Shown here one piece after another: positions 5,139-63,981 of a stretch of 64,000 nt of DNA (positions are counted from its first letter, which is position 1; every line of letters begins with the position of its first letter). The stretch comes from Limisphaerales bacterium (GTDB lineage: Bacteria; Verrucomicrobiota; Verrucomicrobiia; Limisphaerales; UBA1100): NCBI GenBank assembly GCA_965659445.1, contig CBFHWX010000002.1, positions 9,243 through 73,242 of the forward strand. Direction: 5' to 3'. The position numbers and the translations under genes are program-made. Below the pieces are notes generated by a model. That model did no database searches and was not told the DNA's origin. It saw only the letters and a program-made list of their open reading frames with translations.

Positions 5139-5173
5139 TAGATTTATAATAACAATTTAGAGCCAAAATAAAC

Positions 5174-5611: not shown

Positions 5612-5615
5612 AGTA

Positions 5616-47100: not shown

Positions 47101-48504
47101 TTTCCAAGTATGTTTAAGTTGGCATTGATTAATCGTCGGTGGATAAACCCAACCTTTTTTGGCAATGACACGTTTTTGATGCGGGGCATCAGGCGATTGG
47201 CGCCACCGGCTTTGTCCAGCATTGGCAGTTTGTACGGTCAGGAAACGTAGAAATTGAGAGATGCACCGGCTTTGTTGGAATTCGCGGCGCATGATTTGAG
47301 ATCCCCGCTGGGCCTGAGGGCCAACGGTTTGCCAGTTTTCAACAAGATCGTTTATACGATTTGCCAGTTGATCGGGCTCGTAAATATAGACGCCTTCATC
47401 TTGACCGACATAAAGCCCCAGAGCGCTTCCAGCCTGTGTTAGTACTGCGCAGCCGGCGGCCAATGATTCTACTCCCCGGGAAGGCATGCTGCCAGGATGG
47501 CGAATATAGGTGAAAGAGACCTTGGATCGCATTAATTCACTCGCATAACTCAAAGGGGCAAGAAACCCATCCATGGAACGAATGTGCAGCGAGGTATCTC
47601 CCAGCAATGCCTGAAGGAGTCGGGCTTTGTCTGGATGATAATGACTGCTCATGGTTCCCGAGATGAAAACATCTACCTCACGGTTTTCTGGTGCAGTGAT
47701 GGTTTGGAAATGATTCGGGTTAATGCCGAACAGTTTTGGAAAAGTGCAAACTGGACCGTGACGCAATGAACGAACCTTTGCCCACTCCTCGGGTCCGAGT
47801 GTGATTACTTGGTCAAACGCGGGCAGCCAGGGAGCGTTGTTTTGAATATGGATATCCGTGTCCGATGTAACACCGAAAGTTGGACAATCGAGTTCCGTAA
47901 GGTCGTAGGGCAAGTATTGCCACTCGATCATATGGGCAAAATAAAAGTCCGGTTTGATGGTCAGTTCCTCCCGAATGCCGAGGAATGGCTTTTCCGGTAT
48001 ACGGCAATCAGGAACCCATAGTCCCTCACTATTTCGGCGGGTGCGTTTGATGCCCGCATGTTGCACGTGGAAATGATCGTCCTCAAAAACGTCTTCTTCC
48101 CAGACCGTTTGAGTCAGTACATTGATTTGCGGCTTCCGGATTAGCGCCAGCAAGCGCTTGGCTTCCGGCAAATTAGAATGGGACAAGACATCCGTCGCCT
48201 CCGCTTCGTTGCCATCAATCCATAATGCGGCCCCAAGGTAAAATCTTGCTTCATCGGAATTCTCTTTTTCTAGGCCAGCGACGGCGGAGTGTACTTGGCC
48301 GATCAGGCCCATTGCGGCAGAGATCTGCTGTCCATCCACTTGGGAAGAACCCGCCACGCCACAGAAGTTCCCGGCAGTAAACCAATCCTCCGGCGTGCCG
48401 AGGGAAGCATCCGTGTACGAATAAATCTCAATATCCCGGTCTGGGAATTGACTTTTCACATCCATGTTACCCAAAACAAAGCAACTTCCGGGCCAAAGGT
48501 GCAA
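41173..48504 (-). CDS. Giant (2443 aa) multi-glycosyltransferase/TPR protein: two GT-B-like modules, a TPR array, a GT2 module and a second TPR array
   Basis: This is a single uninterrupted 7.3-kb ORF. GT-B-like module 1 lies at about 47300-48465 (DVFISGT...RGVESLAAGCAVLTQ). Module 2 lies at about 45070-46175 (GGRVVESMAAGRPVISW). The first TPR array spans about 42800-44990. The GT2 module lies at about 42100-42790 (LSVCLIAKDEEKFLGNALQS...VVVVDTGSTDRT...WVLVLDADE). More TPR-like helices follow at 41173-42100. The track start at 48504 is a TTG; an alternative ATG lies at 48465. Confidence 0.85.
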   Translation of the reverse strand: MHLWPGSCFVLGNMDVKSQFPDRDIEIYSYTDASLGTPEDWFTAGNFCGVAGSSQVDGQQISAAMGLIGQVHSAVAGLEKENSDEARFYLGAALWIDGNEAEATDVLSHSNLPEAKRLLALIRKPQINVLTQTVWEEDVFEDDHFHVQHAGIKRTRRNSEGLWVPDCRIPEKPFLGIREELTIKPDFYFAHMIEWQYLPYDLTELDCPTFGVTSDTDIHIQNNAPWLPAFDQVITLGPEEWAKVRSLRHGPVCTFPKLFGINPNHFQTITAPENREVDVFISGTMSSHYHPDKARLLQALLGDTSLHIRSMDGFLAPLSYASELMRSKVSFTYIRHPGSMPSRGVESLAAGCAVLTQAGSALGLYVGQDEGVYIYEPDQLANRINDLVENWQTVGPQAQRGSQIMRREFQQSRCISQFLRFLTVQTANAGQSRWRQSPDAPHQKRVIAKKGWVYPPTINQCQLKHTWKECEEKESVNPRASQIIDAAREVDLYLSSDIPDIQRLMRNPDEYKKINRMQTELNEDANRIYRHGWDTHPDSLALRFNGIRHDLHLGEPEYIQEVLDHVRSILNNTESFGVIDPHEDIMPWDYHGAFFNYRSYLDTLTLGLGNNCLDTDKLKNLILASLAHYLGQYTGEVEHLEQAVNWDPEFPRYQYSLARSLLLRNNVGDAERATSLLEVLFNSSILITPSFRLLTNIQEHCNVSIPEWETYENRFRNLQRITFASTHSSSLFENDTLVLPSGITKLALSEDPFAGKERLTSGRVTSSHLACPTGEQNDPKKVLLISFECGNWEHAHTWSYNGFYALEDALGTHDVKHLTLPAIAGVPSNHRGSWLRQAEIFTQDNTFDQVWIWVTHNDYDPKFMEWLETIAPVRVGVVMESLEHSTEEETHYAKLRSRREKVLGHLKHCTHVLTFDERDAETLPNDLPIRTLWCPPVVSWRDVCGNIHLPEAAAASFQGSLYSEERQVLLHHPALHGLLQRPKPVETGTNLPTRFDNIQTLSIKQLLEGETITLNLLDEYLEELRRTRRQLNDLWQRGLRQSYAQVNLPSIFKSYGGRVVESMAAGRPVISWKPPRDRTQALFIPGKEILWFDRDKPEQLAEQIRWLQSNPNQARQMAETARRKVLCHHTAEIRVRQILDWIEYGTEPNYGENTDFLTETKQPEIVMDKNTLPQPKTLEKALNQAEACNEREDRAGAIQALEQALELGDRHPVLLRALATQQFLVTQYDKARTLFEEFTTACPNDATGHVQHGLAAFHDGDEEACTTALQQALIMEPNHPEALKLLADLDVRAERYVEARRKYDQVAEQGGITVEALQALAFCQFKTGEVERAQDTYKQLLTHDPENELTKHNLSVTENTLRKHPPAPAQVNSNLETAPVNEFLEQADFFQQAGNMEAAFAELERALELDPKNPRLIEALGSGLFQQERFEEARRHFRHLIELQPRNAMAYTRLAMTSYETDRYDEFESALGLAMEIDPELPEMLHFMGKMNLDQERHYDAGRIFGKLVELEPHNVQNLLALAMCLYRGGQTEAAQDTYERALQLEPENEIAQTNLLAIKQGDSLTETKTEAQESESQPLSELLQEAQAALEQKEPQRAIALLENMLSQQPSEVALLTALGNLYFSEGQLEEALEYFRRNSDLQPNEVAVQLQAATTALLVKDYETFEIYMERSLELEPENSHGLKLLATANFRAKQYKEAADLYRQALPDLPEDIEIILALGVCFHNLNDKDTSEDCFKRALEIDPNNTVAAENLKALANTTTQPEMSTQPNGHISADVLDNLCSHVQNKTTNDPANLPATALVGNLDHAQELLDQGLHIESWQETLKSIGQRPFHPEAYLHLAEIALESGDTQQAVKCLEVLKGLTPNWEIPQRALEAIKQQSPGQSPGINWPALPENPTSLRLSVCLIAKDEEKFLGNALQSITNIAHQVVVVDTGSTDRTVAIAEEHGAEVHQFEWCDDFSAARNFALEHARGDWVLVLDADEILPTGEIDHLCDDLSRPNHLGYRLPLVNKIKVDQDDNETADGICYVPRLFRNAPSLHFVGRVHEQIYSSVLARQIDWQMDSGIGTSCLHHFGYAPEVKKERDKVRRNLKLLEMSIKEQPPEPTLLMNYALDLFNDGQFEAALEKDQEAFALLSKHTREDILPEVRERLVSVYCYHLLQAELYDELVEIATSTLAIDCGPTASIHYVHGLALLKQQRFEEAIEPFRECITKRDEPAFTARFMGVEGHGPHHLLADCLAKTGQEDSAITEYEQALGMAPEATSVRHGYAQYLTELGQPEKAVKLLFDAIENGSIDARLWSLGCHIVNGHLKDSEVALHWTDCAIDEFPEHPEIRKQRGVALLTVGNFKDALALFEKIPQHPLNEGARILCRIAIGQTAQLSDPDKEQLISTAFMEWYRRLLERGQNEAANRLAKNIDALEPVLPTATMMLIEAMSTES

Positions 48505-48776: not shown

Positions 48777-50396
48777 ATGCGTGTTCTATTCGTAGTTTAT
48801 GATAATGGGTCGTATGATCACATTTTCCCAATGGGACTTGGGGCAATTGGGGCTATCTTAAAGAGAGATGGGCACGAAATTAGTGTCTGGAATCAAGATA
48901 TGCATCATTGGCCAGATGAGTACTTAACAGAGTATTTAGATAAAAATAAATTTGATTTGGTTATCGTGAGTTTGATAGCTGGTTATTACCAATATAGAAG
49001 AATGTTGGGACTATCTAAAGCAATCAATAAATCTAAACAACGGCCAACTTATGTAATCGGAGGTTACGGACCAACACCTGAGCCAGAATATTGGCTCAGG
49101 AAACTAGAATGCGACATAGTAGGGCTAGGAGAGGGAGAAATTACAATATCTGAGCTAACAAAAACGCTAGATAATAATGAACCATTGGAACAGGTTCCCG
49201 GAATTGCGTGGATAGATGTAAGTGGCAAATTTCAGGAAACACCAAGGCCTCCACAAATCGAAGATTTAGATTCTCTTCCGTGGTATCCGTATGAATTGTT
49301 CCCAATGGAGTATTACAGGCTCATGGAACTTCCCAGAGCTTCAGCAACTGATTTTCGCATGCCAATGATGTCTGCAAGAGGTTGCACTTTTAAATGTACG
49401 TTTTGTTACAGGATGGACCCTGGCTACAGAAAGCGTGATCCAGTAGCATTACTTGATGAGGTGGAGTTTCTTTATAAGGATTACGGTATAACAAGAATTA
49501 CATTTCAGGATGATTTATTAATGTCATCTGTTGAACATACAATTGAGGTTTGCCGCGAGTTTGAAAAGCGCAAACTGCCAATTACATGGGATTGTAATGG
49601 ACGGTTAAATTATTGCAGCAAAGAATTGTTGGAGTATATGAGTAAGGTGGGATGTGTTTATATTAATTATGGAATTGAATCAATGGATCCCAATGTGCTT
49701 AACAGCATGAAAAAGGGCTTGTCCCCTAAAACGATTACTCAAGGAATAGAATGGACATTGGATGTTGGAATAAGCCCAGGCCTTAATTTTATATTTGGTT
49801 ATCCTGATGATAATATGGATACCATAAAAAAATCAGTGAACTTTTTACTGAAGTACGATGATTTTTCAGAAAAAAGAACTATTCGACCTGTAACTCCATA
49901 TCCGGGATCGCCCATTTATTATGACGCTATCAATAAGGGTTTACTGGATAAAGATAATCCCGCAGCGGATTTCTACGAAAACAAACATCTTAATTCTGAT
50001 CTGATATCCGTAAATTTAACAAAACTTCCCGATGAAGAATTCTATAAGTGTATTCAATGGGCAAACAAAACACTTATGGAGAATTACTTCAATAATCAGC
50101 GCGAGAACACCCTTGCCCAAATAGACTATTTATATACTACAAAAGACACTTCTTTTAGGGGTTTTAGGGGCATGCATGATGACACGACAATGGAACATGC
50201 CAAGGGGAAAAATAATGATTTAAAAAACTGGGAGGGGTCTAAAAAATCTGATGGTGACAGATTTTCAACTCATGGGCTTGGTAAATCTAGGCTTAAGAAA
50301 GAAATTAAAGTAAAAGATGGAAATGCGGGGAATGCCAGTAAAAAGTTTAAACATGAATATAAAAAAATAATATCAAGAGAAAAAGTGTTGAAATGA
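48777..50396 (+). CDS. B12-binding (class B) radical SAM enzyme
   Basis: The N-terminal cobalamin-binding-like Rossmann segment reads FDLVIVSLIAGYY...VIGGYGPT. The CxxxCxxC cluster motif is ARGCTFKCTFCY (49382-49405). The C-terminal tail is Lys-rich. The gene is visibly AT-rich. Confidence 0.9.
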   Translation: MRVLFVVYDNGSYDHIFPMGLGAIGAILKRDGHEISVWNQDMHHWPDEYLTEYLDKNKFDLVIVSLIAGYYQYRRMLGLSKAINKSKQRPTYVIGGYGPTPEPEYWLRKLECDIVGLGEGEITISELTKTLDNNEPLEQVPGIAWIDVSGKFQETPRPPQIEDLDSLPWYPYELFPMEYYRLMELPRASATDFRMPMMSARGCTFKCTFCYRMDPGYRKRDPVALLDEVEFLYKDYGITRITFQDDLLMSSVEHTIEVCREFEKRKLPITWDCNGRLNYCSKELLEYMSKVGCVYINYGIESMDPNVLNSMKKGLSPKTITQGIEWTLDVGISPGLNFIFGYPDDNMDTIKKSVNFLLKYDDFSEKRTIRPVTPYPGSPIYYDAINKGLLDKDNPAADFYENKHLNSDLISVNLTKLPDEEFYKCIQWANKTLMENYFNNQRENTLAQIDYLYTTKDTSFRGFRGMHDDTTMEHAKGKNNDLKNWEGSKKSDGDRFSTHGLGKSRLKKEIKVKDGNAGNASKKFKHEYKKIISREKVLK

Positions 50397-50484
50397 TTTT
50401 ACATGCACTTATCTAGCTTAAGCCTATACCATGCAGATTTGTGTAAAATCCAAATATGTTACTTAATAGTAAATTACGTAAACA

Positions 50485-51654
50485 ATGCGGAAAAAAGTGT
50501 TCTTGTTAGTTGGGTTTGAAGGTTTGCCCGAACTGTTGACTCAATACAATCCAGACGAACCGTCTGCATTTATTTTTCAAAACAATCCAGGCAATCGTTT
50601 TTTTGTTGAAAAGATCCTCAAGAAAAAAGAGTGTAGCCTGTCTGTTAATGGTTTCCCTTCTAATGTAGTAGTTTTTGATAAGGACCCGGAAAGCAATAAA
50701 GGTCAATCATTGGCCTTCCAAGATTTCACCCCTAATCAATGGTCTTCTTTTTTGGGAATCCCTGAGTTTGTGAAACAAATCAGGGATTACATCAATAAGC
50801 TGCAGCCAATATCGGAAATAGTTTGGTACAATCGCCAGGACCTTTGGGTGTCGTTAGTACTGAGTATTGCTAAGGATATGAAAATCCCAACTTTACTAAT
50901 ACAATCAGAACGCAATTCACAAATAAAATTTAATTATTGGAACAATGAGAAATTGAGAGAAATCAATCCGAAAACGGCGGGATTTATTGATCAACTGAAT
51001 AGCGCGCTTTCTCAGAAACTGTTATTAGCGGACATATACTTGGATAACATTGATGATTGCATGCTCTATTCAGGGTTAAGCCCGGCGTTAGAGGGGCATA
51101 GGCAATTGGATGTATCTTTGGATGAAGTTGCAGAAAATATAAATAAATTAAAAAGAGAATTAAATTATTCATGTGATGTGAAACCCAACAAATCAAACTC
51201 TGAAATATTATTTGTTGATGATGGAATGTCATTTGATGATCACGGGTATAACTGGGAAAAGACTCGTGATAATCTCAAGAGATATTTTATTGATTTGCCC
51301 ACTGATGTCCCTGTAACAATAAAGATGAGGCAAGTCAGGGATGAAGATGAAGGCACAAAGAATCAACTTGTTGAGTTATTCCCGGCGCGGTCAAAAATTA
51401 GATTTGCCCAATCTTTTATGCCCTTAGAGTTTATGATTAGCGATTTTGATATGGTCTTTTACATGCTTACCTCCTCTATGCTGTATCCATTCAAAACCAG
51501 ACGTATAAGTTTATTCAAATTATTAGCTGTGGAAAAAGAAAGTTTTCACGCCCGTTGGAAAATCTATATGAAATATATTAAATCATTATCTTCTGGTGAT
51601 TCTCTAATTATCACAGAAAGTAAATCAAGGGTAGAAGACCTGGTTCCTCATTAG
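50485..51654 (+). CDS. Hypothetical protein (389 aa), AT-rich; possible GT-B-type transferase (weak)
   Basis: It is a clean ORF in the same AT-rich islet as the radical SAM gene. N-terminal KKVFLLVGFEG and C-terminal DFDMVFYMLTSSMLY loosely resemble GT-B or capsule-type transferases. No firm motif was found. Confidence 0.5.
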   Translation: MRKKVFLLVGFEGLPELLTQYNPDEPSAFIFQNNPGNRFFVEKILKKKECSLSVNGFPSNVVVFDKDPESNKGQSLAFQDFTPNQWSSFLGIPEFVKQIRDYINKLQPISEIVWYNRQDLWVSLVLSIAKDMKIPTLLIQSERNSQIKFNYWNNEKLREINPKTAGFIDQLNSALSQKLLLADIYLDNIDDCMLYSGLSPALEGHRQLDVSLDEVAENINKLKRELNYSCDVKPNKSNSEILFVDDGMSFDDHGYNWEKTRDNLKRYFIDLPTDVPVTIKMRQVRDEDEGTKNQLVELFPARSKIRFAQSFMPLEFMISDFDMVFYMLTSSMLYPFKTRRISLFKLLAVEKESFHARWKIYMKYIKSLSSGDSLIITESKSRVEDLVPH

Positions 51655-51895: not shown

Positions 51896-52429
51896 ATGTG
51901 TGGACTGAACTTGGAGAGATTGGAATCGATTGTTTGTGATTTTGATGGTGTGCTGACAGACAATCGCGTGTGGACGGATGCTGAGGGGCGTGAAATGGTA
52001 GTGTGTCATCGGGGTGATGGTTTGGCATTCGATGTGTTGCGAGCGATGCCCGTGAAAGTATTTATTCTTTCCACTGAAACGAACCCGGTAGTTGCGCGAC
52101 GGGCACAAAAGCTGTGTGTGCCTTGCTTGCAGTCGGTTGGTTGCAAAGCGGAGGCATTGCGCGAGTTATCGGCAGAACATCAATTTTCATTGGGGCACAC
52201 GTTGTTTATAGGTAACGATTTAAATGATCTGGCAGCAATGGATTTATGTGGGTACCGTGCGTGTCCGGCGGACGCGCATCCGGTAGTTCGATCGCGCGCG
52301 CATATAGTCACCGGTGTGGTGGGCGGTAATGGGGTGGTCCGGGAATTAGTGGAGAAACACTTGAGCATAGACATGGACAAGGCGTTGCGGAAAGGCGCTG
52401 GTGGGGAAGAAGGGCGAGAATGTTCATAA
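51896..52429 (+). CDS. HAD-IIIA phosphatase of the KdsC / ulosonate-phosphate phosphatase family
   Basis: The HAD motif I is IVCDFDGVLTDNRVW. Also present are GDGLAFDVLR, FIGNDLNDLAAM and GGNGVVRELVE, as in KdsC and KDN-9-P phosphatase. It overlaps the NeuB-like gene by 10 nt. Confidence 0.85.
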   Translation: MCGLNLERLESIVCDFDGVLTDNRVWTDAEGREMVVCHRGDGLAFDVLRAMPVKVFILSTETNPVVARRAQKLCVPCLQSVGCKAEALRELSAEHQFSLGHTLFIGNDLNDLAAMDLCGYRACPADAHPVVRSRAHIVTGVVGGNGVVRELVEKHLSIDMDKALRKGAGGEEGRECS

Positions 52430-53262
52430 TCGCTGAGATCGGAATTAATCACAATGGGGATGTAGACATTGCGCAGGCGTTAATCTGTACGGCCAAGGAA
52501 GCGGGATGTGACGCGGTGAAATTTCAGAAGCGAACCTTGGAGGTGGTGTATCCGGCGGAGGTGCTTGACGCGCCACGGGAGAGCCCTTGGGGTACAACCA
52601 ATCGCCAGCAGAAAGAAGCACTTGAGTTTGGCCGAAAGGAGTATGAGCAGATCGATGCGTTTTGCCGCGAACTAAACATTGAATGGTTTGCTTCGGCCTG
52701 GGACAAGGAGAGCCAAATTTTTCTGCGGCAGTTTAATCTTAAGTACAACAAGATTGCCTCGGCGATGATTGTAGATGAATCGCACTTGCGCCAAGTGGCG
52801 GAGGAAGGGAAGCATACCTTCATTTCCACAGGGATGAGCCAGATGACGGACATTGAACGGGCGGTGACGGTGTTTCGTGAATTGGGCTGTTCCTTTGAGT
52901 TGATGCATACCATCTCGACATATCCTATGAAAGATGAAGACGCTAACCTGAACTGCATACCCATGCTTCGTAAAAAATTCCAATGTGATGTGGGCTACAG
53001 CGGTCATGAGTCGGGACTGGCAGTATCTTATGCGGCTGCGGCGTTGGGGATCAGTTCGTTGGAACGGCACATTACTTTGGATCGAGTGATGTACGGGTCC
53101 GATCAGGCGGCTTCTGTAGAGCCAGTCGGCCTGCGCATGCTGGTGGGTGCGGTGCGCAAGATTGAGGAGGCGATGGGCGACGGGGAGAAATGCCTGCTGG
53201 AAAGCGAGAGACCTATCGCCCAAAAGTTGCGGTTGCATTTGCCTTGGGAGTCTGGTGAATGA
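52420..53262 (+). CDS. NeuB-family (sialic/ulosonic acid) synthase, TIM-barrel only, without the C-terminal SAF/AFP-like domain
   Basis: MFIIAEIGINHNGDVDIAQALICTAKEAGCDAVKFQKRT is the NeuB N-terminal signature. GYSGHESG and LERHITLD are also present. At 280 aa it is about 60-70 aa shorter than canonical NeuB, PseI or LegI. Confidence 0.85.
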   Translation: MFIIAEIGINHNGDVDIAQALICTAKEAGCDAVKFQKRTLEVVYPAEVLDAPRESPWGTTNRQQKEALEFGRKEYEQIDAFCRELNIEWFASAWDKESQIFLRQFNLKYNKIASAMIVDESHLRQVAEEGKHTFISTGMSQMTDIERAVTVFRELGCSFELMHTISTYPMKDEDANLNCIPMLRKKFQCDVGYSGHESGLAVSYAAAALGISSLERHITLDRVMYGSDQAASVEPVGLRMLVGAVRKIEEAMGDGEKCLLESERPIAQKLRLHLPWESGE

Positions 53263-53514
53263 AATTACACAAACGAAAGCCCGTCGGTTGTGGCTCGAGC
53301 GCATGTAGGGGTGGTTGCTGCTCAAGCATAAAAAGGCCGGTATCAGACGCATTCGACGAGGTGCTGGCGTGATGAGCTTCCCAAGGCATAGCAGATTTAC
53401 CGGATATATTTTTCCGACGGCGGGATTTGGATTTTAATGGCGTGATGACCAGACAGGCTTATAAGGAAGACGAAGGGGTCGCGGTTTTTTGCGAACAGGT
53501 TGAACTGGGGGGGA

Positions 53515-54285
53515 ATGTTTGGAATGCCTGACGCTGCGCATGATTCCACGGTGGCCATCATTCCCGCCAGATCGGGATCGAAATCCGTTCCTGATAAGAA
53601 CATCGCTGATCTTGCTGGCCATCCTGTGTTGGCTTACAGCATTGCCGTGGCGAGATTGAGTCAGGAAATCGATCGAGTGTTGGTTTCAACTGACAGTAAT
53701 GACTATGCCGACCTTGCCCGGGAATATGGAGCGGAAGCTCCATTTTTGCGACCGGCGGAGTTGGCTTCTGACACTGCGGGGGATTTGGAAGTCCTACGCC
53801 ATGTCATGGACTGGATGAGCGACCATGAACATCATGTGCCGGAGTACTGGGTGTATCTTCGACCGAGTACTCCGCTGCGGGATCCCGTGTTGGTGGACCA
53901 AGCCATCCGGCAGTTCAAAGATACCGGCGAAGCAGTATCTCTGCGCTCGGCGCATCCCGCTCCAGAAAGTCCTAGGAAGTGGTTTCGCAAATTGGGTAAT
54001 AACTTTTTTCCCCTGATGGACGGCGTTACCATGGCGGAAACCGACCAGCCAAAAGAGGCCTTTGCCACGGCTTTTGTTCCGGATGGTTATGTGGATGTTT
54101 TCAAAACCTCCCACGTGCGCGGCCGAGGAGCACTGCACGGTGATCGTATCATGGCGTTTGTCTCACCTGTTAACACGGAAATCGACAGTGCCGAAGAGTT
54201 GGACTATCTGCGCCACCAACTGGAGAGTAACGGATCGCCGTTGTTGGAGTTCTTAAATAAACTAGAGAGAGGAGGAACGCCGTAG
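53515..54285 (+). CDS. CMP-ulosonic acid (acylneuraminate-type) cytidylyltransferase
   Basis: AIIPARSGSKSVPDKNIADLAGHPVLAYSI...RVLVSTDS...FLRPAELASD is the NeuA/KdsB-family N-terminal pattern. The start is uncertain: the track gives a TTG at 53500, and ATGs lie at 53515 and 53524. Confidence 0.85.
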   Translation: MFGMPDAAHDSTVAIIPARSGSKSVPDKNIADLAGHPVLAYSIAVARLSQEIDRVLVSTDSNDYADLAREYGAEAPFLRPAELASDTAGDLEVLRHVMDWMSDHEHHVPEYWVYLRPSTPLRDPVLVDQAIRQFKDTGEAVSLRSAHPAPESPRKWFRKLGNNFFPLMDGVTMAETDQPKEAFATAFVPDGYVDVFKTSHVRGRGALHGDRIMAFVSPVNTEIDSAEELDYLRHQLESNGSPLLEFLNKLERGGTP

Positions 54286-55667
54286 TGGCTGAATCTACCA
54301 TGGTCGCCGCGCCGGTGGAGGTGCCTCAAGTGGACACGCCGCATCGCCGCATCGTCACGCCGCTTCCAGTTCCGGAAAGTATAGCCCTGTTTGAAAGGCT
54401 TGAACGGACGGAGGCGCGCTCCATGCACGGTCAGCTGCCAGTGATCTGGGATCGGGCTGATGGTATTCATGTTTACGATCCCTGGGGCAACATGTGGCTG
54501 GATTTCACCAGCACCATTTGTGTCGCTAACGCCGGCCACGGTCACCCAGCGGTGGTGGAGGCCATCCGTCACCAGATAGATCGGCCGCTTCTGCACACCT
54601 ACACCTTTGCCCATGCCGAACGAGTGGCGTTTCTGGAATACCTGATTGCCCACACCCCTTCCCAATTTGAAAAGGCGTTTCTGGTATCTGCTGGATCGGA
54701 GGCGGTGGAGGCTTCGCTGAAGCTGATGCGCCTACACGGCCAAGCAGCCGGCAAGCGCCGAGGGGGCGTGCTCTGTATTGAGGGCAACTGGCATGGCCGC
54801 ACGCTGGGCGCACAGATGATGGCTTCCAACCCGGTCCAGCGCGAATGGATTGGCTACCATGATCCCAACCTGCATCACTTGCCCTTTCCGTTTCCTTGGG
54901 TGACAGAGATCGCCAACGATCCCGTGGCCTTTTTCCGGAAGAGCCTGGAGGAACTGGAGCAGACCCACGGTCTGGATCCGACACGGGATTTATGCGGCGT
55001 GATGCTTGAAACCTACCAAGGATGGGGCGGTTTTTTTTACCCCCCCGAATTCGTGCTGGAGTTGGTCCGCTTCGCCCGAGAGCATGATCTGCTGGTCACT
55101 TTTGATGAAGTGCAATCCGGTTTTGGGCGGACCGGTGAGCTATTCGGTTACATGCATTATGGCGTGGAGCCGGACATCATCTGTTGCGGCAAGGGCGCCA
55201 GCTCCAGCGTGCCGTTGGCATTTGTAATGGGATCGCGGAAGATCATGGACCTACCCGAATTTGGCTCCATGAGTTCCACGCACTCAGCCAACCCCTTGGC
55301 CTGTGCCGCAGGACGGGCCAGTTTTGAGGTGTTGCTTAACGAGGGGTTGATTGACAATTCCCGCAGTCTGGGTGCTCAAATGCACGAGCGCTTGCAGGCA
55401 CTTCCGCTGCGCCACCCCCAACACATCCGTTCAGTGGAAGGGCGAGGCCTTATGGCCGGGATTATCTTTTACAATGAAGATGGCTCCAGCGGCACGGACC
55501 TATGCAACCAGATGTGTGAGCGGGCTATGCAGCGCGGATTGCTGGTGGTGAAGACAGGGCGCGAATCTATAAAGCTAACGCCGCCCCTGAACATCGATGA
55601 GGCGGCTTTGTTTGAAGGAATCGAAGTGCTGGAGGAAGTGGTGAACCAGGTGATCGCCGATGATTAG
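54285..55667 (+). CDS. Class III PLP-dependent aminotransferase
   Basis: Motifs are SAGSEAVEASLKLMR, FDEVQSGFGRTGELFG and the Lys motif DIICCGKGASS. The GTG start overlaps the upstream stop; an alternative ATG lies at 54300. Confidence 0.9.
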   Translation: MAESTMVAAPVEVPQVDTPHRRIVTPLPVPESIALFERLERTEARSMHGQLPVIWDRADGIHVYDPWGNMWLDFTSTICVANAGHGHPAVVEAIRHQIDRPLLHTYTFAHAERVAFLEYLIAHTPSQFEKAFLVSAGSEAVEASLKLMRLHGQAAGKRRGGVLCIEGNWHGRTLGAQMMASNPVQREWIGYHDPNLHHLPFPFPWVTEIANDPVAFFRKSLEELEQTHGLDPTRDLCGVMLETYQGWGGFFYPPEFVLELVRFAREHDLLVTFDEVQSGFGRTGELFGYMHYGVEPDIICCGKGASSSVPLAFVMGSRKIMDLPEFGSMSSTHSANPLACAAGRASFEVLLNEGLIDNSRSLGAQMHERLQALPLRHPQHIRSVEGRGLMAGIIFYNEDGSSGTDLCNQMCERAMQRGLLVVKTGRESIKLTPPLNIDEAALFEGIEVLEEVVNQVIADD

Positions 55668-56094
55668 CGCCCTGCGTCATACCGGGCTGGTGGTGCAAGA
55701 TCTAGAGTCCGCCATCGGATTTTACGAGGGTTTGGGGCTGCGTCTTTGGCGGCGTGAGACAGAGACAGGGCCATTTATTGAGCAGGTTACCGGTTTGTCT
55801 GGTGTACGTCTCGAATGGGCAAAACTCAAGGCCCCAGACGATTCGCTTTTGGAACTACTGCAATATCATTCACACCCCGCAAACGCTCTGCATGAAATTG
55901 CCCCCGTCCAAACTCATGGCTGTTCGCATGTCGCTTTCACCGTGGCAGATGTGGAAGCCACCTGTGCGCGTGTTAAAGAACTTGGAGGCACGGTGACCAA
56001 CCCTCCCGCACTATCATCTGATAAATGCGTGTGTGTGGCCTACGGGCACGATGTAGATGGGGTTCTAATCGAACTGGTGGAGGAACTGTCTTGA
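55660..56094 (+). CDS. VOC (glyoxalase/bleomycin-resistance/epimerase fold) family protein
   Basis: 144 aa. LRHTGLVVQDLESAIGFYEGLGL and GCSHVAFTVADVEATCARVKELGG are typical paired beta-alpha-beta-beta-beta modules. It overlaps the aminotransferase stop. Confidence 0.75.
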   Translation: MISALRHTGLVVQDLESAIGFYEGLGLRLWRRETETGPFIEQVTGLSGVRLEWAKLKAPDDSLLELLQYHSHPANALHEIAPVQTHGCSHVAFTVADVEATCARVKELGGTVTNPPALSSDKCVCVAYGHDVDGVLIELVEELS

Positions 56095-56978
56095 ACAGTA
56101 CTCTGTGTTGTATCGTTTGTGGTGGGAAACAATTTGAAACAGTTTATTGCGGGGCCATTCGTGCTGGATCGTATGGTAAGATTACTGAGGATGTGCATGA
56201 GGTAGTAGAGTGTAACGGATGTGGTTTTCGACACTTGAAGGAGTTTGTTCAGATAAATTATGAGACTGACTCCTACCGTGAGAATTATAACAATTCTGCC
56301 GAAGTGGAGGATTACTTGTCTACGCATACTTCCGAACAGGAATTGCGCCTGAAACGCATTGGCCTCAACCGGTTTCGTGAAAAAAAGGTACTCGATTTTG
56401 GCTGTGGAGGCGGTGCGTTTTTGGATGCCGTCAAAGACGTTGCCTACGCCACGATAGGCATTGAGCCCATGACCAGTTTCCACTCAAGCCTCCTCGAACG
56501 AGGCCATCAAGTAGTGGTGTCTGCTAATGACCCGGATTTGACTGACGGTATGGCGGATGTGGTAGTGTCTTTTGGAGTCATTGAACACGTCGAGGATCCA
56601 CTGGCTCACCTATTCGACATTCATCGCTTCCTTACCCCCGGCGGAGTAGCATTCCTGGAAACCGACAACCTGAAGGAGATTCTTATGTGTTTGGCGCTCC
56701 CGGAATTTGAGCGGTTCTTCTATCGCACAGCGCATGCTTGGTACTTCTCCTCTGGGACTCTGGAAACTTTGTGCCACAAGGCTGGTTTTGCGACCGTACT
56801 TCCGGGCCATCGGCATGGCTACGATTTGTCGAACTTTATTCTTTGGCTGCGTGATCGAGAACCCACGGGGATAGGTCGTTTACGGTTGCTGAGTGGAGCT
56901 TCTGACCAGGAATGGAAGGCGACCTTGGAAAAGGCCGGCTTGGCTGATTTGCTTTTATTTGAACTTACCAAGGATTGA
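56091..56978 (+). CDS. Class I SAM-dependent methyltransferase with an N-terminal Cys4 ribbon
   Basis: The SAM motif I is VLDFGCGGGAFLD. The N-terminus has CCIVCGG...ECNGCGF. The proposed TTG start at 56091 overlaps the VOC stop (tTGA). The track start at 56025 would overlap the VOC gene by 70 nt. Confidence 0.8.
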   Translation: MNSTLCCIVCGGKQFETVYCGAIRAGSYGKITEDVHEVVECNGCGFRHLKEFVQINYETDSYRENYNNSAEVEDYLSTHTSEQELRLKRIGLNRFREKKVLDFGCGGGAFLDAVKDVAYATIGIEPMTSFHSSLLERGHQVVVSANDPDLTDGMADVVVSFGVIEHVEDPLAHLFDIHRFLTPGGVAFLETDNLKEILMCLALPEFERFFYRTAHAWYFSSGTLETLCHKAGFATVLPGHRHGYDLSNFILWLRDREPTGIGRLRLLSGASDQEWKATLEKAGLADLLLFELTKD

Positions 56979-57063
56979 AGTGTATTTGGGGTTTTGTGAC
57001 AAAAGTCTGATGGTGACCGTGCTTGGTGTAGTATTTATGGCTGAAGGCTTCCAAGTTTAGCAT

Positions 57064-57918
57064 ATGATCTGTAATTTGAATAAGCGCATTGGATTCATAC
57101 AGGGCCGGTTATCTCCGTTAGTGAATGGCCGAATTCAAGCTTTTCCAAAAGATTATTGGTGTGAAGAGTTTTCTTTGGCACAGGGACAAGGCATTTGTCT
57201 GATGGAGTGGACATTGGATCATGACGCACTTCACGAAAACCCCCTCCTCACGACTGATGGACGAACAGAGATGCAAAGGCTTTCTGATATTCACCAGGTA
57301 TCTATCCCTTCTCTTACGGGTGATTGTTTTATGCAGTTTCCATTTTGGAAGGCTCCAAAGGCTCAACGGGAAAGTTTGGAGCATGACTTTCTGGCGGTTA
57401 TTGATGCTTGCTCTATTGTGGGGATTGAATTTGTAGTTGTTCCTTTGGTGGATAATGGAAGTCTTGAGGCAACAAAAGAAGAGAATGTTCTGGTTGAGTT
57501 TATGGAACGGCATGCTGAGGTTTTTCGAGCGAGAAAGGTATCTATTTTATTTGAGTCAGATTTCGTTTCTGCCGAGCTCAAACGTTTAATTAAAACATTT
57601 CCGGCGGGAGTTTTTGGCATTAACTACGACACGGGAAACAGCGCATCTCTCGGTTATCAGTTTCAGGATGAAATTGAAGCATACGGAGATCGAATCCTGA
57701 ATGTGCATATTAAGGACCGACTTCTTGGTGGGACGACGGTACCTTTGGGTACTGGTAACGCGAAATTGCCAGAGACAATTTCTGCGTTAGAACGGCAAGG
57801 GTATGAGGGTAATTATATTCTTCAGACGGCCCGTGCTCTTGATAATGACCATGTTGGTGCGATACACCGTTACCGCGAAATGGCAAAGGATTGGATAAGT
57901 CAGGCCAGATGGAATTAG
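57064..57918 (+). CDS. Xylose-isomerase-like TIM-barrel protein (sugar or sugar-phosphate isomerase/epimerase)
   Basis: 284 aa. IGFIQGRLSP...EWTLD, FESD and LNVHIKDRL resemble the UlaE/SgbU/hexulose-phosphate isomerase type. Confidence 0.7.
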   Translation: MICNLNKRIGFIQGRLSPLVNGRIQAFPKDYWCEEFSLAQGQGICLMEWTLDHDALHENPLLTTDGRTEMQRLSDIHQVSIPSLTGDCFMQFPFWKAPKAQRESLEHDFLAVIDACSIVGIEFVVVPLVDNGSLEATKEENVLVEFMERHAEVFRARKVSILFESDFVSAELKRLIKTFPAGVFGINYDTGNSASLGYQFQDEIEAYGDRILNVHIKDRLLGGTTVPLGTGNAKLPETISALERQGYEGNYILQTARALDNDHVGAIHRYREMAKDWISQARWN

Positions 57919-58691
57919 GACTCGAAAATTCACGAGTGTTAATTACCGGTTCATCGCGTGGAATAGGTCATGGGATTGCTGCCTCTTTTATGGAAGAAGG
58001 AGCAATCGCGGTCTTGACCGGCAGAGATGAGAAAGATTTAACTGCTGCTCAAGAAATTCTTATCGGTGAGCATGGTGCAGATCATGTGGAGGCATACGCA
58101 GGAAACCTCGGTGAGCCTGCAGTCCGATCTGGATTGTATGAATATTTAGCTCCTCGTGGATTAGATCATCTTGTGTGCAACATTGGCTCAGGTCGGTCGG
58201 TTCCGGCATTCCAGGAAAATGATGAAGAGTGGCGCCGTATGTTTGATGTAAATATTGTGCAAGCTGCTGGTGTATTGCGACAGCTGCGCGACCTTTTGGT
58301 TGCGAGTGCGCAACGTGGGCGGGATACAAGCGTTACATTTATTGGGTCGATTTGCGGGATGGAAGCACTGGGTTGCCCTTTGCCTTATGCATCTGCAAAA
58401 GCAGCGTTATGGGCATATGCAAAAAATCTGGTCCAACCACTGGCGAAAGATGGCATTCGGGTCAATCAGGTTACTCTGGGTAATATCTTGTTCCCAGGAT
58501 CGACATGGGAGAATAAGCTGGATGAGGGGGAGGCAAGTGTACAACAAATGCTGGAAAAGGAAGTAGCCATGCGTCGTCTTGGCACCGTGCAAGAAGTGTC
58601 GGCTGCCGTTGTTTTTCTCGCATCGAAGCAGGCAGCATTTATTACTGGTGCAAATCTGGTTGTCGACGGCGGCCAGACAAGGGGGTTATGA
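57909..58691 (+). CDS. Short-chain dehydrogenase/reductase (SDR)
   Basis: The cofactor motif is VLITGSSRGIGHGIA and the catalytic motif is YASAKAAL. The ATG at 57909 overlaps the upstream stop. Confidence 0.85.
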   Translation: MELGLENSRVLITGSSRGIGHGIAASFMEEGAIAVLTGRDEKDLTAAQEILIGEHGADHVEAYAGNLGEPAVRSGLYEYLAPRGLDHLVCNIGSGRSVPAFQENDEEWRRMFDVNIVQAAGVLRQLRDLLVASAQRGRDTSVTFIGSICGMEALGCPLPYASAKAALWAYAKNLVQPLAKDGIRVNQVTLGNILFPGSTWENKLDEGEASVQQMLEKEVAMRRLGTVQEVSAAVVFLASKQAAFITGANLVVDGGQTRGL

Positions 58692-58706
58692 ATATAGGGG
58701 GAGAAA

Positions 58707-59540
58707 ATTAGGGTTCGTGATCAGTTTGACCTAACCGGCAGGCATGCGGTCATAACCGGTGGTGCGGGAATGTTGGGGGTTAAGCATGCCGAAGCCATTG
58801 CTGAACTGGGGGGAATCCCTGTCATCGTCGATATCGACATGGAGCGATGCGATCAGGTGGCGGAGCAAATCAGGAAAGAATTCAAGGTAAACTGCATTGC
58901 AGCTCCTGCGGATATAACAGACCCACAACAGGTCGTTAAATTGTGTGATAGCCTCTTAGAGGATTGCGGTCACCTCGATATCCTCATCAATAATGCCGCC
59001 AACAATCCGTCAGTTGGTTTAGGCGGTATGGATCAAGTTCATGGTTCCCGGATGGAGGTATTTCCCTTGGAGGTTTGGAATCAGGATATTGCGGTTGGCT
59101 TAACCGGAGCTTTCCTCTGTGCACGTACCTTTGGCCAGTTAATGGCTAAACAGGGTAAGGGAGTGATTCTGAATATTGCTTCTGATCTCGCCCTAATTTC
59201 ACCCGATCAACGTCTCTATCATAAGTCAGGTTTGCCTGAACAGGCTCAATCCGTGAAGCCCGTAACTTACTCTGTGGTAAAGAGCGGACTGATTGGCTTG
59301 ACCCGTTATTTGGCTACCTACTGGGCAGATCGCGGGGTGCGTTGTAATGCCCTATCTCCCGGTGGTATTTATGTCGATCAAGAAGAGGGTTTTGTGCAAC
59401 GCCTAAGCCAACTGATTCCGATGGGGCGCATGGCCACCAAGGATGAATATAAAGCCGCTGTGGCTTTTCTGGTTTCTGATGCTTCCAGCTATATGAACGG
59501 CGCAAATCTGGTTATTGACGGCGGGCGAACGGCGTTGTGA
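58707..59540 (+). CDS. Short-chain dehydrogenase/reductase (SDR); start codon unresolved
   Basis: The catalytic motif is YSVVKSGL and NNAA is present. The cofactor motif VITGGAGMLG begins upstream of the first canonical start (ATG 58770). The only candidate in the open frame is ATT at 58707, which has GGAG 4 nt upstream. Confidence 0.7.
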   Translation: MRVRDQFDLTGRHAVITGGAGMLGVKHAEAIAELGGIPVIVDIDMERCDQVAEQIRKEFKVNCIAAPADITDPQQVVKLCDSLLEDCGHLDILINNAANNPSVGLGGMDQVHGSRMEVFPLEVWNQDIAVGLTGAFLCARTFGQLMAKQGKGVILNIASDLALISPDQRLYHKSGLPEQAQSVKPVTYSVVKSGLIGLTRYLATYWADRGVRCNALSPGGIYVDQEEGFVQRLSQLIPMGRMATKDEYKAAVAFLVSDASSYMNGANLVIDGGRTAL

Positions 59541-59740
59541 AACGGTCTCTGGTTACTGCAACAATCGAGCAGCCTTGGCCTAAGGATGGCTGTATTTTGT
59601 TCCAAATGTTGAGTGTGGAAAGCGAGAGCTCCCGTGCCTGCTTTAGCGCTTGAGTCAAGCACTGGAAATCCCTGTCCGTTGAATCACTGATTCTGTCGGA
59701 TGGAAAATCAGTCATCAAGAATTTGACGACTTAATTAGGG

Positions 59741-61935: not shown

Positions 61936-63981
61936 TCATAAAGCTGCCATTCTTTGATATTCATCCTCATAAAATTGAGATTTTTGAGGTTTTGAAAAAA
62001 TATTAGCAATTTCAAGGGTTGCTGAATCCTTTGCGCCCGTCAGATTTATGCATTGCTTTAGTGCCACAAAGGCGTTTTCACGATCGCCGGCGTTGGCCAT
62101 TTGAGTGATATTTTCCAATGCCGAATTGAGCAGTGTATCCAAGGCTGGTTTCAGTCTGTTTTGGAAAGGAAAAGAGACCATGACACACATGCCCTGTTCA
62201 GCCAGCTTTTGGATATCTTCTGGAGGATGGTGAGCCAATCGGAAATCTTCCCCCAAGGCTGGTGAGAGCGCATAAAATAATTCGCCCACTTGTGCGAGCT
62301 GGTAGCCGCGATATTCACCCAATGAGATAACCGTTTGCCCCGTGGAAACATCTTGGGTTAATAAGTCATACACTGGTGTATTTTCAGCATGTTGGCTAAG
62401 GAGTTGAGCAAATCGACGTCGAGTGATGTTGGCCGCCCTTGAGCGACATAGTTCATTATTAAAAATTCGGTGAGTCCAATCTGCCGCCGTCCGTTCTGCA
62501 AGTATGGAAAGTCGAAGATTTCCATCTTCTGCTCTCATCGCTTGTTCCAATAAACGTTGGCTCGCGATGGTCAGTTTGCCTAATTTTATGGCGTGTCGTA
62601 TTTTATCATCGTTTTCGGATAATAGTATCCTGTGTTTTTGACAATCAGATTGGCTTGTAGGTGCTGATTCATATCCCAACTGAGTTAACGCTTCATTTGC
62701 GATGTCGTGAAAGCAGGCGGCGTGGCTACCGTTGATTTGCGCTTGTGGCCTTGAGTTCTCAATAGAAAAGTTGGAAATAGCATCGTTAATGGCATTCGGT
62801 GTTCGGTGAACATTTAAAAATTTGAGAACTTCCTGTACCACCTGTACCGGGTGGGTTTGCATGTCTTCATACCGTATGACTTGCAAACGCATAATTTTGG
62901 CCATCTCCAGCCAATATAGGTTGAATAAACCCCAAGTCTCCGCAGGAGGTAATTTAAATAGTCCTGGGAAATGTTCCGGCCATTCCTCAGGGGTGAGAAG
63001 ATAATCCTTAAAAGACATGCTCTCTGAATGGTGTTGATGATAGTGGGAATGCACCGCGTCACGACCGTCCCGAGTTAGGAGGATGCTGGGCTGGTGTGTG
63101 TTCCTTGCAAAATCCAGACGATGGTTAATACGGCTTTTCAAGCCCATTGCGTGCAGCACATTTACCAACCACTCGGCTCCGCTGAGGAAGGGGGCAGATA
63201 CGATTTGAACTTCGGGATGGGCCTCCATATGGGTGTAGCCCCAGCGCTGCAGAAAGCAGTCAAAGTGTTCATGAAATGCTTTTATTACATTATCATCAAA
63301 CTGGTTCTTCCAATCGCCGCTAATGCCCTTACGGTACATGAAACTGGTTCGGATCGTCGGGCCATCCTCACCGCACTTCCGTCCGGCAACTGCCTCAAAA
63401 CTGTTCTGCTTACACACCTCTTGTAATTCTGGTTCTGGTAATTCTAATCCGAGAGAGTGTAGAATAGAATGTACGGCTGCTGGAATATCCCGCTTCATTT
63501 CTTCAAATGAAAGTGTGTGGACATTGGGTTGATCCAAATGAATCCACTCGTCTGCGTGATGAAACATTCCTCCAAACTCCGAGCTGATATAATCCAAATA
63601 TAATTGCTTTTCCGTATGACCCTCATGGAGTTCACGATGGATTAGATCTTTAACGTGTGATACAAGGACATCGCGTGGGTCACGGAATAAACAGATGAAT
63701 CGAAAATCTTCCCGGTCGAGAAATCGCTCAAAAACACTTGCTGGACTGTGGGTCCAATGAAAAATAGGTGCCTCTTCAGTGAATTGTTTTTCAAATTCAA
63801 TTGAGTCTCCAGGCCCCCCCAGCGCCGTGTATTGAAACTTTTCAGTCAGTAATTCGACAAGAATGGGCACGATGGCCGATGCACCCGCATTGTTCAGGTT
63901 ATAAAAAACCACATGCGGTCGTTTGGACCAATCAGATTCTCTTGTGCAATGTTGCCGATGCTTGTGGTGTGCTGATCTCAT
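61936..63981 (-). CDS. Tandem-domain sulfotransferase with a C-terminal helical region
   Basis: Domain 1 has LFRDPRDVLVSHV (3'-phosphate-binding motif) and YRKGISGDWKNQFD (Sulfotransfer_1 hallmark). The second, diverged domain has SAPFLSGAEW and ILLTRDGRDAVHSHY. It is 681 aa. Confidence 0.8.
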   Translation of the reverse strand: MRSAHHKHRQHCTRESDWSKRPHVVFYNLNNAGASAIVPILVELLTEKFQYTALGGPGDSIEFEKQFTEEAPIFHWTHSPASVFERFLDREDFRFICLFRDPRDVLVSHVKDLIHRELHEGHTEKQLYLDYISSEFGGMFHHADEWIHLDQPNVHTLSFEEMKRDIPAAVHSILHSLGLELPEPELQEVCKQNSFEAVAGRKCGEDGPTIRTSFMYRKGISGDWKNQFDDNVIKAFHEHFDCFLQRWGYTHMEAHPEVQIVSAPFLSGAEWLVNVLHAMGLKSRINHRLDFARNTHQPSILLTRDGRDAVHSHYHQHHSESMSFKDYLLTPEEWPEHFPGLFKLPPAETWGLFNLYWLEMAKIMRLQVIRYEDMQTHPVQVVQEVLKFLNVHRTPNAINDAISNFSIENSRPQAQINGSHAACFHDIANEALTQLGYESAPTSQSDCQKHRILLSENDDKIRHAIKLGKLTIASQRLLEQAMRAEDGNLRLSILAERTAADWTHRIFNNELCRSRAANITRRRFAQLLSQHAENTPVYDLLTQDVSTGQTVISLGEYRGYQLAQVGELFYALSPALGEDFRLAHHPPEDIQKLAEQGMCVMVSFPFQNRLKPALDTLLNSALENITQMANAGDRENAFVALKQCINLTGAKDSATLEIANIFSKPQKSQFYEDEYQRMAAL

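Follow-up and report, generated by a model that had tools for sequence, protein, structure and literature searches.

A nine-gene operon for a putative CMP-activated ulosonic acid, with a SAF-less NeuB-family synthase, in a Limisphaerales bacterium

The subject of this analysis is a group of nine genes in a 64,000-nucleotide (64 kb) stretch of DNA from a Limisphaerales bacterium (GenBank assembly GCA_965659445.1, contig CBFHWX010000002.1, positions 9,243 to 73,242), referred to throughout as the window. The nine open reading frames (ORFs), identified by reading the ORFs and by Pfam and NCBIfam searches of the window, lie at 51896–59540 on the + strand, run in one direction and mostly overlap. 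Judged from their predicted products, they are best called a putative cytidine monophosphate (CMP)-ulosonic acid pathway that runs through a phosphorylated intermediate and has a new set of tailoring enzymes.

Gene content and coupling of the operon

The genes are as follows, with the short names used below in brackets; PLP is pyridoxal phosphate, VOC vicinal oxygen chelate, SAM S-adenosylmethionine, TIM triose-phosphate isomerase and SDR short-chain dehydrogenase/reductase.

51896–52429, + strand, KdsC-like HAD (C0/IIIA) phosphatase (HAD), 177 aa; Pfam HAD, NCBIfam KdsC
52420–53262, + strand, SAF-less NeuB-family phosphoenolpyruvate (PEP)-condensing synthase (NeuB), 280 aa; Pfam NeuB, 225 bits
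53524–54285, + strand, CMP-ulosonate synthetase of the CTP_transf_3 family (CTP3); Pfam CTP_transf_3, 72.9 bits
54285–55667, + strand, class III PLP aminotransferase (AT3); Pfam Aminotran_3, 297.7 bits
55660–56094, + strand, VOC-fold metalloenzyme (VOC); Pfam Glyoxalase, 52.6 bits
56091–56978, + strand, class I SAM methyltransferase (MT) with an N-terminal CxxC...CxxC (Cys4) motif; Methyltransf_23, 81.7 bits
57064–57918, + strand, UlaE-like TIM barrel with the xylose isomerase fold (TIM); AP_endonuc_2, 68.3 bits
57909–58691, + strand, classical SDR oxidoreductase 1 (SDR1); adh_short_C2, 120.6 bits
58707–59540, + strand, classical SDR oxidoreductase 2 (SDR2), ATT start; adh_short_C2, 148.9 bits

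All of these genes and their places had been given in a preliminary description made from the sequence alone, and all were confirmed on the + strand by Pfam and NCBIfam. The Pfam searches which that description proposed found NeuB, CTP_transf_3, Aminotran_3, Glyoxalase, Methyltransf_23 and AP_endonuc_2 domains and no SAF domain. The overlaps it listed were also found in the DNA. The HAD and NeuB genes share 10 nt (ATG at 52420, TAA at 52427–52429), CTP3 and AT3 share 1 nt (the TAG ends and the GTG begins at 54285, with AGGAGG 9 nt upstream), AT3 and VOC share 8 nt (from 55660), VOC and MT share 4 nt (TTG at 56091 within TCTTGA, with GGAGGA upstream) and TIM and SDR1 share 10 nt (ATG at 57909). 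The starts match the gene calls in a close relative with 94–99 % protein identity (L091), which agrees with the DNA reading on the TTG start of MT. The CTP3 ORF opens with a TTG at 53500 and the likely start is the ATG at 53524; L091 calls a protein of 253 aa. HAD, NeuB and CTP3 are consecutive on one strand, a linkage shared with many other loci, and the GC content of the operon genes is 44–58 %. The nine genes most likely form one translationally coupled operon. A promoter and terminator scan of 48.4–60.7 kb gave counts no higher than in shuffled sequences, and no obvious sigma-28 box was seen by eye in the two upstream intergenic regions.

The reported lack of Neu, Pse and Leg precursor genes and of a DegT-type aminotransferase holds across the 64 kb, NeuC, PseG and PseH types being covered by Pfam scans only, in which no such family appeared. 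In the 64 kb, tblastn with representatives from related loci and Pfam searches of nearly all ORFs of at least 150 aa revealed no DegT-type aminotransferase, no extended-SDR dehydratase/epimerase and no SIS isomerase, and neither the operon nor the remainder of the 64 kb contains a nucleotide-sugar dehydratase, N-acetyltransferase or hydrolysing epimerase/nucleotidase gene. The scope of these absences is the window, and a gmhA gene or a canonical pseudaminic (Pse) or legionaminic (Leg) acid pathway could sit elsewhere in the genome.

A SAF-less synthase and its putative phosphatase

In canonical enzymes of the NeuB family, a C-terminal SAF (antifreeze-like) domain gives an Arg314-type substrate contact. 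The 280 aa synthase had been described as lacking this domain, and this proved correct, because the match to the 329-position NeuB_NnaB model covers only positions 1–273 and the protein ends 23 residues past a Pfam NeuB domain (residues 21–257) that is its sole domain. Scores against NCBIfam models were 234.5 bits for NeuB_NnaB and 176.7 bits for PseI, compared with curated cut-offs of 399.65 and 340.25, respectively. The residues corresponding to E25, K53, Q55, K129, S132, S154, H215, E234, H236 and D247 of NmNeuB are retained (as E6, K34, Q36, K111, S114, S136, H196, E215, H217 and D228), and hence the two metal-binding His and the PEP-binding Lys and Ser residues of the NeuB TIM barrel are present. 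At the position of NmNeuB E134, all 24 family members compared have Met (Met116 in the window synthase) and the aligned PDB homologues have E or D. Two further features are specific to the family, an inserted loop at residues 44–66 with invariant R53, W57, R62 and K65, and a short C-terminal helix or tail with invariant K269, R271 and H273. The basic residues of this loop and tail are candidates for binding a phosphate group.

The structural model of the synthase (mean predicted local distance difference test score, pLDDT, 88.9) fits best to PDB entry 6NCS, with a template modelling (TM) score of 0.85, and TM scores were 0.85–0.86 across 6NCS, 1XUU and 8H2C. KdsA and DAHPS are distant fold matches only (TM about 0.65–0.70). 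The 6NCS protein, a SAF-less NeuB from Leptospira borgpetersenii, is also the top sequence match (138 bits). However, it shares only about 31 % identity with the window synthase, does not have the 44–66 loop and carries Asp in place of the invariant Met116.

Though the preliminary description called this pathway atypical, the synthase is not so in the sense of being rare. In each of the best 120 database clusters the protein was NeuB-only, 275–296 aa long and 70–99 % identical to the window synthase, and a scan of one genome per species returned at least 600 matches to this type. Carriers among the best 80 of these matches include Spirochaetes, Omnitrophota, Desulfobacteraceae, Mariprofundaceae, SAR86, SAR11, Prochlorococcus, Planctomycetes, Acidobacteria, Chloroflexi, Firmicutes and one archaeon, with others. 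In a survey of NeuB proteins, 30 % of 13,941 homologues were without SAF, and it was these that came from the environment (Vieira et al. 2021, PMC8208679). Loss of SAF from NeuB is therefore not new in itself, and the SAF-less NeuBs have no assigned function.

The HAD protein is a cap-less enzyme of 177 aa with motifs I–IV complete, and at least 90 % of 22 homologues retain D15xD17, S59, K84 and G106xD108xN110D111. Its NCBIfam scores all lie below the curated cut-offs (KdsC 88.9 bits, cut-off 208; KDN-9-P phosphatase 88.4, cut-off 180; TIGR01670 69.9, cut-off 106.95). Among PDB entries 3mmz came first (129 bits), followed by KdsC entries and by 3e81, which we take to be BT1713. We propose that it acts as an omega-phosphate phosphatase on a 3-deoxy-2-ulosonate. 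Assignment of this protein as GmhB was considered and rejected, as it did not match the GmhB model, on which the true GmhB of Laribacter scores 190 bits.

For comparison, 82 loci carrying this NeuB type were assembled. A HAD gene adjoins the NeuB gene on the same strand in 36 of them, drawn from many phyla, and lies upstream in 15 and downstream in 21. A phosphorylated condensation product had been claimed in the preliminary description, and the conserved adjacency, together with the gene fusions and the recurring cassette described below, strengthens that claim; dependence on the phosphatase is still something that we infer. A rival reading is that the synthase acts, as NeuB enzymes ordinarily do, on a sugar without phosphate; the HAD protein would then be the housekeeping KdsC of the cell, or a phosphatase of some other function placed upstream by chance. 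In keeping with that reading, its scores on the KdsC and KDN-9-P phosphatase models are equally high, and roughly half of the loci that carry this NeuB type have no HAD gene next to it. We consider this very unlikely. The two genes overlap by 10 nt, the 36 loci with adjacent genes include those of Gram-positive lineages that make no Kdo (3-deoxy-D-manno-oct-2-ulosonic acid), HAD and CMP-transferase are joined in a single protein in a locus where the same NeuB type lies alongside, the score of the window HAD is well below the KdsC equivalog cut-off (88.9 versus 208) and genes for an unphosphorylated hexosamine precursor are absent from the window.

Recurrence of the cassette and the proposed pathway

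Across the compared loci, the genes fall into three modules, namely (a) HAD and NeuB, often preceded by a GmhA-like SIS_2 gene, (b) TIM followed by two SDRs, and (c) CTP3, AT3 and VOC, after which one or two methyltransferases often come and also, for L010 and L012, a B12 radical-SAM gene. The complete set in close to the window order was found in a metagenome-assembled genome (MAG) from NCBI (L004), in Mariprofundaceae (L013), in SAR86 (L014), in a Magnetococcales MAG (L088), in L086 and L090, and in Laribacter hongkongensis (L085). The nearest named relative for several of the genes is a Magnetococcales MAG. As the same genes occur in the same order in unrelated phyla, the arrangement is beyond what would be expected by chance. 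Identities to L086 are mosaic (HAD 81 %, NeuB 76 %, CTP3 51 %, AT3 64 %, VOC 80 %, MT 27 %, TIM 72 %, SDR1 87 % and SDR2 91 %), which shows that modules have been exchanged.

Three fusions were found. In L089, a 388 aa protein (3851–5017) encoded beside a SAF-less NeuB joins CTP_transf_3 to a KdsC-like HAD; for the HAD half, the KdsC model gives 104.9 bits and the identity with the HAD of the window is 43 %. A Roseburia MAG (L037, 12053–13129) encodes a 358 aa HAD and SIS_2 fusion. In Laribacter hongkongensis (GCA_015024395.1), a 630 aa protein (4003–5895) includes NeuB, SAF and AP_endonuc_2 domains, and the gene is followed by SIS_2, CTP3, AT3, VOC, MT, TIM, SDR and SDR genes. Of the evidence obtained here, the fusions argue most strongly that phosphatase, synthase, cytidylyltransferase and TIM barrel act in a single pathway, and they indicate that the product of the phosphatase would feed the CMP-transferase.

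Another recurrent context was seen in L058–L084, which are mainly from Acidobacteria and Verrucomicrobia. There, the HAD gene lies downstream of NeuB and is followed by genes for an acetolactate-synthase-like thiamine pyrophosphate enzyme, a family 2 glycosyltransferase (GT2) and FkbM methyltransferases, which suggests a further uncharacterised, possibly branched-chain, ulosonic acid.

The CTP3 protein matched PseF (116.8 bits, cut-off 205.7) and also KdsB, again below the cut-off, and its PDB matches are NeuA and CMP-Neu5Ac synthetases (76–90 bits). Of the 11 loci with both AT3 and VOC, 10 carry a CTP3 gene next to the pair, and there the identity to the window CTP3 is 40–51 % compared with 28–36 % in most other loci. 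This adjacency and closer sequence suggest that the molecule activated would already be aminated, in keeping with tailoring before activation.

The tailoring proteins are related to characterised families at varying distances. The best NCBIfam match of AT3 reached 307 bits (cut-off 552); it groups with γ-aminobutyric acid (GABA) and acetylornithine transaminases, and its top PDB matches are GABA transaminases (about 207 bits). In every locus that bears VOC it is paired with AT3 (11 loci), and at least 90 % of 11 homologues retain the metal-ligand positions H7, E65, H90 and E138 (H/E/H/E). The best PDB match of VOC is the uncharacterised 1ss4, followed at a distance by glyoxalase I and methylmalonyl-CoA epimerase. 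PDB similarity of MT is weak, both to O-methyltransferases of the UbiG type (UbiG, 31 bits) and to the Zn-ribbon sugar C-methyltransferases TcaB9, KijD1 and TylC3 (20–27 bits). The best NCBIfam match of TIM, which has over 5,800 homologues, is UlaE, and its top family matches are L-ribulose-5-phosphate 3-epimerases. An AlphaFold model of TIM (pLDDT 93.9) is nearest to UlaE (TM 0.81–0.85) and next to ketose 3-epimerases. E164, D189 and H215 of this protein are invariant, and Q replaces E at the fourth canonical metal-ligand position. We propose that it is an epimerase acting beside a keto group. SDR1 comes after the TIM gene in most cassettes. In L007, L040, L054 and L089 a class IV aminotransferase gene replaces AT3 and VOC just before TIM-SDR-SDR, and amination thus appears to be a recurrent step.

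The AT3, VOC, MT, TIM and SDR proteins could alternatively build a separate moiety, such as another sugar or an amino-acid-like substituent that is attached later, rather than tailoring the ulosonate. The TIM-SDR-SDR and CTP3-AT3-VOC modules are separable, each being alone in some loci, and AT3 is nearest to enzymes of amino-acid metabolism. However, the operon includes no second nucleotidyltransferase, ligase or acyltransferase to activate or attach such a moiety, CTP3 is beside AT3-VOC in nearly all loci with that pair, a Laribacter protein joins NeuB to an AP_endonuc_2 domain and the modules nearly always adjoin this NeuB type, making a separate moiety quite improbable.

Hence, from the gene content, catalytic residues, coupling, conservation and fusions, we put at roughly 0.6 the probability that the operon makes a CMP-activated, tailored 3-deoxy-2-ulosonic acid via a phosphorylated intermediate, for use in a surface glycoconjugate. 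The proposed substrate, order of steps and product are as follows. The SAF-less NeuB-type enzyme would condense PEP with an aldose phosphate, either D-glycero-D-manno-heptose-7-phosphate or mannose-6-phosphate (Man-6-P), to give a 3-deoxy-2-ulosonate omega-phosphate, from which the KdsC-like HAD would take off the terminal phosphate. A keto group may then be formed from a carbinol by one SDR and the neighbouring carbon epimerised by the UlaE-like TIM barrel. On this keto intermediate, the second SDR would carry out a reduction or AT3 a transamination. VOC would catalyse a proton transfer (epimerisation or isomerisation) on the same keto intermediate. Methyl groups would be added by MT, and perhaps also by a B12 radical-SAM enzyme encoded upstream, before the CTP_transf_3 enzyme forms the CMP-sugar and neighbouring glycosyltransferases transfer it. 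A CMP-ulosonic acid route with amino, methyl and redox tailoring had been put forward in the preliminary description; recurrence, adjacency and fusions uphold the core of this reading, the cassette is not rare and the chemistry is still inferred.

The sugar phosphate used may be a heptose. In this case, a GmhA-type isomerase would convert sedoheptulose-7-phosphate, following the logic of the Kdo pathway, to D-glycero-D-manno-heptose-7-phosphate, and loss of the SAF cap would make room for the longer phosphorylated tail. The product, a ten-carbon 3-deoxy-dec-2-ulosonic acid one carbon longer than Kdn, would once freed of its phosphate be epimerised, aminated, methylated and CMP-activated. Such a product is chemically reasonable, because D-glycero-D-manno-heptose-7-phosphate is the C7 homologue of Man-6-P. 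A GmhA-like SIS_2 gene is present in 33 of about 88 loci, often in the order SIS-HAD-NeuB with overlapping genes, and the proteins score 173–183 bits on GmhA models, just below the cut-offs, and are 35–46 % identical to E. coli GmhA. As 32 of the 33 SIS loci have no HddA-like kinase or GmhB, the synthase is the sole evident consumer of heptose-7-phosphate in those loci. The exception is Laribacter, where the cassette is embedded among GmhA, HddA, GmhB and HddC genes; this locus alone has the full GDP-heptose set, with GmhB above its cut-off and the best matches for HddA and HddC below theirs. The Roseburia HAD and SIS_2 fusion also fits a heptose substrate. Against it, the window does not contain a SIS gene, the GmhA-like proteins fall below the GmhA cut-offs and could use another ketose phosphate (for example, fructose-6-phosphate to give Man-6-P), gmhA is frequent in polysaccharide loci for unrelated reasons and no ten-carbon ulosonic acid was found in the full-text literature searched, a body that leaves subscription journals mostly outside. 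Though the isomerase in related loci hints at a heptose phosphate at least as strongly as at Man-6-P or N-acetylmannosamine-6-phosphate (ManNAc-6-P), the specific ten-carbon product is tentative and on balance unlikely.

Several observations weigh against the pathway proposed for the operon. No operon protein reaches the curated cut-off of any named NCBIfam family. The loci with no HAD gene adjacent to NeuB include L010, L012, L032 and L042, which have AT3-VOC. With Met116 at the position of NmNeuB E134, the condensation chemistry could differ in detail. In the same literature, no member of the cassette has been characterised biochemically. The link to flagella is one of adjacency alone, and related cassettes lie beside ABC-transporter genes and O-antigen- or capsule-type genes. 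Finally, the LIC12162-type transferase gene that usually follows the cassette is truncated here (see below), leaving use of the product in this genome unproven. With this dedicated transferase lost, any use of the product would have to depend on a different glycosyltransferase.

Genomic setting and comparison with known systems

The flagellar setting, a B12 radical-SAM gene, the ATT start of SDR2 and a stub of a transferase gene are features beyond those in the preliminary description. Genes around the operon are listed here.

36459–37892, − strand, smaller protein with tetratricopeptide repeats (TPR) and a GT9-like domain, from Pfam
41173–48504, − strand, TPR + GT1-like + GT2 protein of 2443 aa, candidate glycosyltransferase; Pfam TPR families, Glyco_trans_1_2 and Glycos_transf_2
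48777–50396, + strand, B12-binding radical SAM enzyme; Pfam B12-binding and Radical_SAM, 37 % GC
50485–51654, + strand, ORF of 389 aa, membership in the system uncertain; 36 % GC
59537–59653, + strand, stub of a LIC12162-family transferase gene, 38 codons, deletion remnant; N-terminal match to an L086 gene
59741–60607, − strand, GT2-family glycosyltransferase, candidate user of the activated sugar; Pfam Glycos_transf_2, 31.7 bits

At the 3′ end of the operon, an SDR2 ORF beginning with the ATG at 58770 would lack the Rossmann TGxxxGxG motif. The N-terminus that includes this motif (ITGGAGMLG) aligns with orthologues only from about 58701, upstream of that ATG, and the frame ahead of the motif is devoid of ATG, GTG and TTG. 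The sole ATG-like codon in frame is the ATT at 58707, with a Shine-Dalgarno sequence 5 nt upstream, and the same arrangement with AGGAGG and no indel is found in two independent metagenome assemblies. Because the orthologue alignment reaches upstream and the two assemblies agree, we take ATT 58707 to be a real and conserved start codon. The gene callers in both assemblies begin SDR2 at the later ATG, and the cofactor motif is lost. A homopolymer error in the G-run at 58697–58701, which would fuse an ATG at 58688 to the SDR2 frame, was rejected, as both assemblies have GGAGG with the same length and frame.

A gene for a LIC12162-family transferase comes after the cassette in L086, L088 and L089, and the L088 homologue scores 520 bits on TIGR04331. 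In the window, the first 22 codons of the stub at 59537–59653 are 73 % identical to the N-terminus of the 589 aa gene that follows SDR-SDR in L086, and the sequence then diverges, placing a deletion or recombination junction near 59603. The deleted transferase gene, together with the lack of a standard start codon before the SDR2 Rossmann motif, could mean that this genome carries a decaying or silent cassette. The chance of this appears very slim: the nine frames are intact with catalytic residues kept, the ATT start with its Shine-Dalgarno sequence recurs in both assemblies, the same frames are open in relatives with 94–99 % identity as far as their contigs extend, and other glycosyltransferases flank the operon.

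The first 36.5 kb of the window is a flagellar region, in which Pfam identified FlgI, FlgH, FlgA, FlgG and FlgF, FliS, FliD, MotA/B, FliA, FliF–J, FlgE, FliL, FliM, FliO, FliP and FliR, and FlhB, FlhA and FlhF. No flagellin gene was recognised among the window ORFs of at least 150 aa and no Maf-type transferase was identified in the window. The 2443 aa TPR and glycosyltransferase protein sits between the flagellar genes and the cassette. Downstream, the GT2 gene is part of a − strand group with genes for a TPR protein and a 681 aa sulfotransferase-domain protein. We regard the setting as a flagellar or surface glycosylation island, and the sugar here is most likely flagellar.

The location of the sulfotransferase-domain gene (61936–63981, − strand) near glycosyltransferase genes hints at a sulfated glycan. 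Within the flagellar region, a 1090 aa protein with Sel1 repeats and a trypsin-like peptidase domain is encoded between fliA and fliF (12636–15908, − strand), and ORFs at 6554–7384 (− strand), 23019–23846 (+ strand) and 23849–25288 (+ strand) have no Pfam match.

All NCBIfam matches of the B12 radical-SAM protein upstream of the operon are far under the cut-offs. It is 51–52 % identical to the products of the radical-SAM genes that lie inside the AT3-VOC cassettes of L010 and L012, and such a gene also follows the cassette in L088. The enzyme is a probable C-methylase or rearranging enzyme and a possible accessory of the cassette. The 389 aa ORF between this gene and the operon has no Pfam or NCBIfam match and no homologue in any of the compared loci. 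The two genes make up a block of low GC content (48777–51654, 36–37 %, against 44–58 % in the operon genes).

Nonulosonic and octulosonic acids (sialic, pseudaminic and legionaminic acids, Kdo and Kdn) are key surface sugars with roles in motility, immune evasion and phage recognition. The cassette is a compact, highly conserved and very widespread pathway built around a NeuB type that has been surveyed but is functionally unassigned, and its sugar is described in no paper found in the literature searched. It could reveal a new acid sugar, possibly one of ten carbons that bears a free or methylated amine. If the heptose substrate is correct, this would be an undescribed class of surface sugar one carbon beyond the sialic acids, in many environmental phyla including SAR11, SAR86 and Magnetococcales. 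As the cassette is found in abundant marine lineages (SAR11, SAR86 and Prochlorococcus) and in cultured ones (Laribacter, Alteromonas and Terasakiella), solving one example would annotate thousands of genes. The operon is small enough to be reconstituted in E. coli, so the question is directly testable, and the pathway could also be investigated in Laribacter hongkongensis, which has been cultured.

The genomic setting resembles the Pse/Leg flagellin islands of Campylobacter, Aeromonas and Geobacillus, where a CMP-ulosonate pathway likewise lies beside flagellar genes and glycosyltransferases. Aeromonas islands also include accessory class III aminotransferase and methyltransferase genes (PMC7874193). 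In contrast to these islands, the window has no PseB/C/H/G- or LegB/C/H/G-type genes, and has a SAF-less synthase together with a phosphatase.

With the KDN route of Bacteroides thetaiotaomicron (KDN-9-P synthase BT1714 and KDN-9-P phosphatase BT1713) and the vertebrate Neu5Ac-9-phosphate route, the proposed pathway shares NeuB-type condensation of PEP with a sugar phosphate, a KdsC-family HAD and CMP activation. The HAD fused to the cytidylyltransferase in vertebrate CMP-sialate synthetase resembles the fusion in L089. However, the window HAD scores below the equivalog cut-off for the KDN-9-P phosphatase (88.4 versus 180), the synthase is without SAF, the cassette adds an aminotransferase, VOC, MT, TIM and two SDRs, and the isomerase of related loci is GmhA-like.

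The Kdo pathway (KdsD, KdsA, KdsC and KdsB) follows the same logic of ketose-phosphate isomerase, aldol condensation with PEP, phosphatase and CMP activation. It differs in that a GmhA-like SIS protein would stand in for KdsD and a NeuB-family enzyme for KdsA, and all scores of the cassette proteins are under the Kdo-family cut-offs. In Shewanella, the 8-amino derivative of Kdo, Kdo8N, is formed from free Kdo through oxidation by KdnB and transamination by KdnA, after KdsC and before CMP activation. KdnB is a metal-dependent alcohol dehydrogenase and KdnA is a DegT-type aminotransferase, whereas the cassette encodes classical SDRs and a class III aminotransferase with VOC, but the succession of dephosphorylation, oxidation, transamination and then CMP activation is the order proposed for the cassette.

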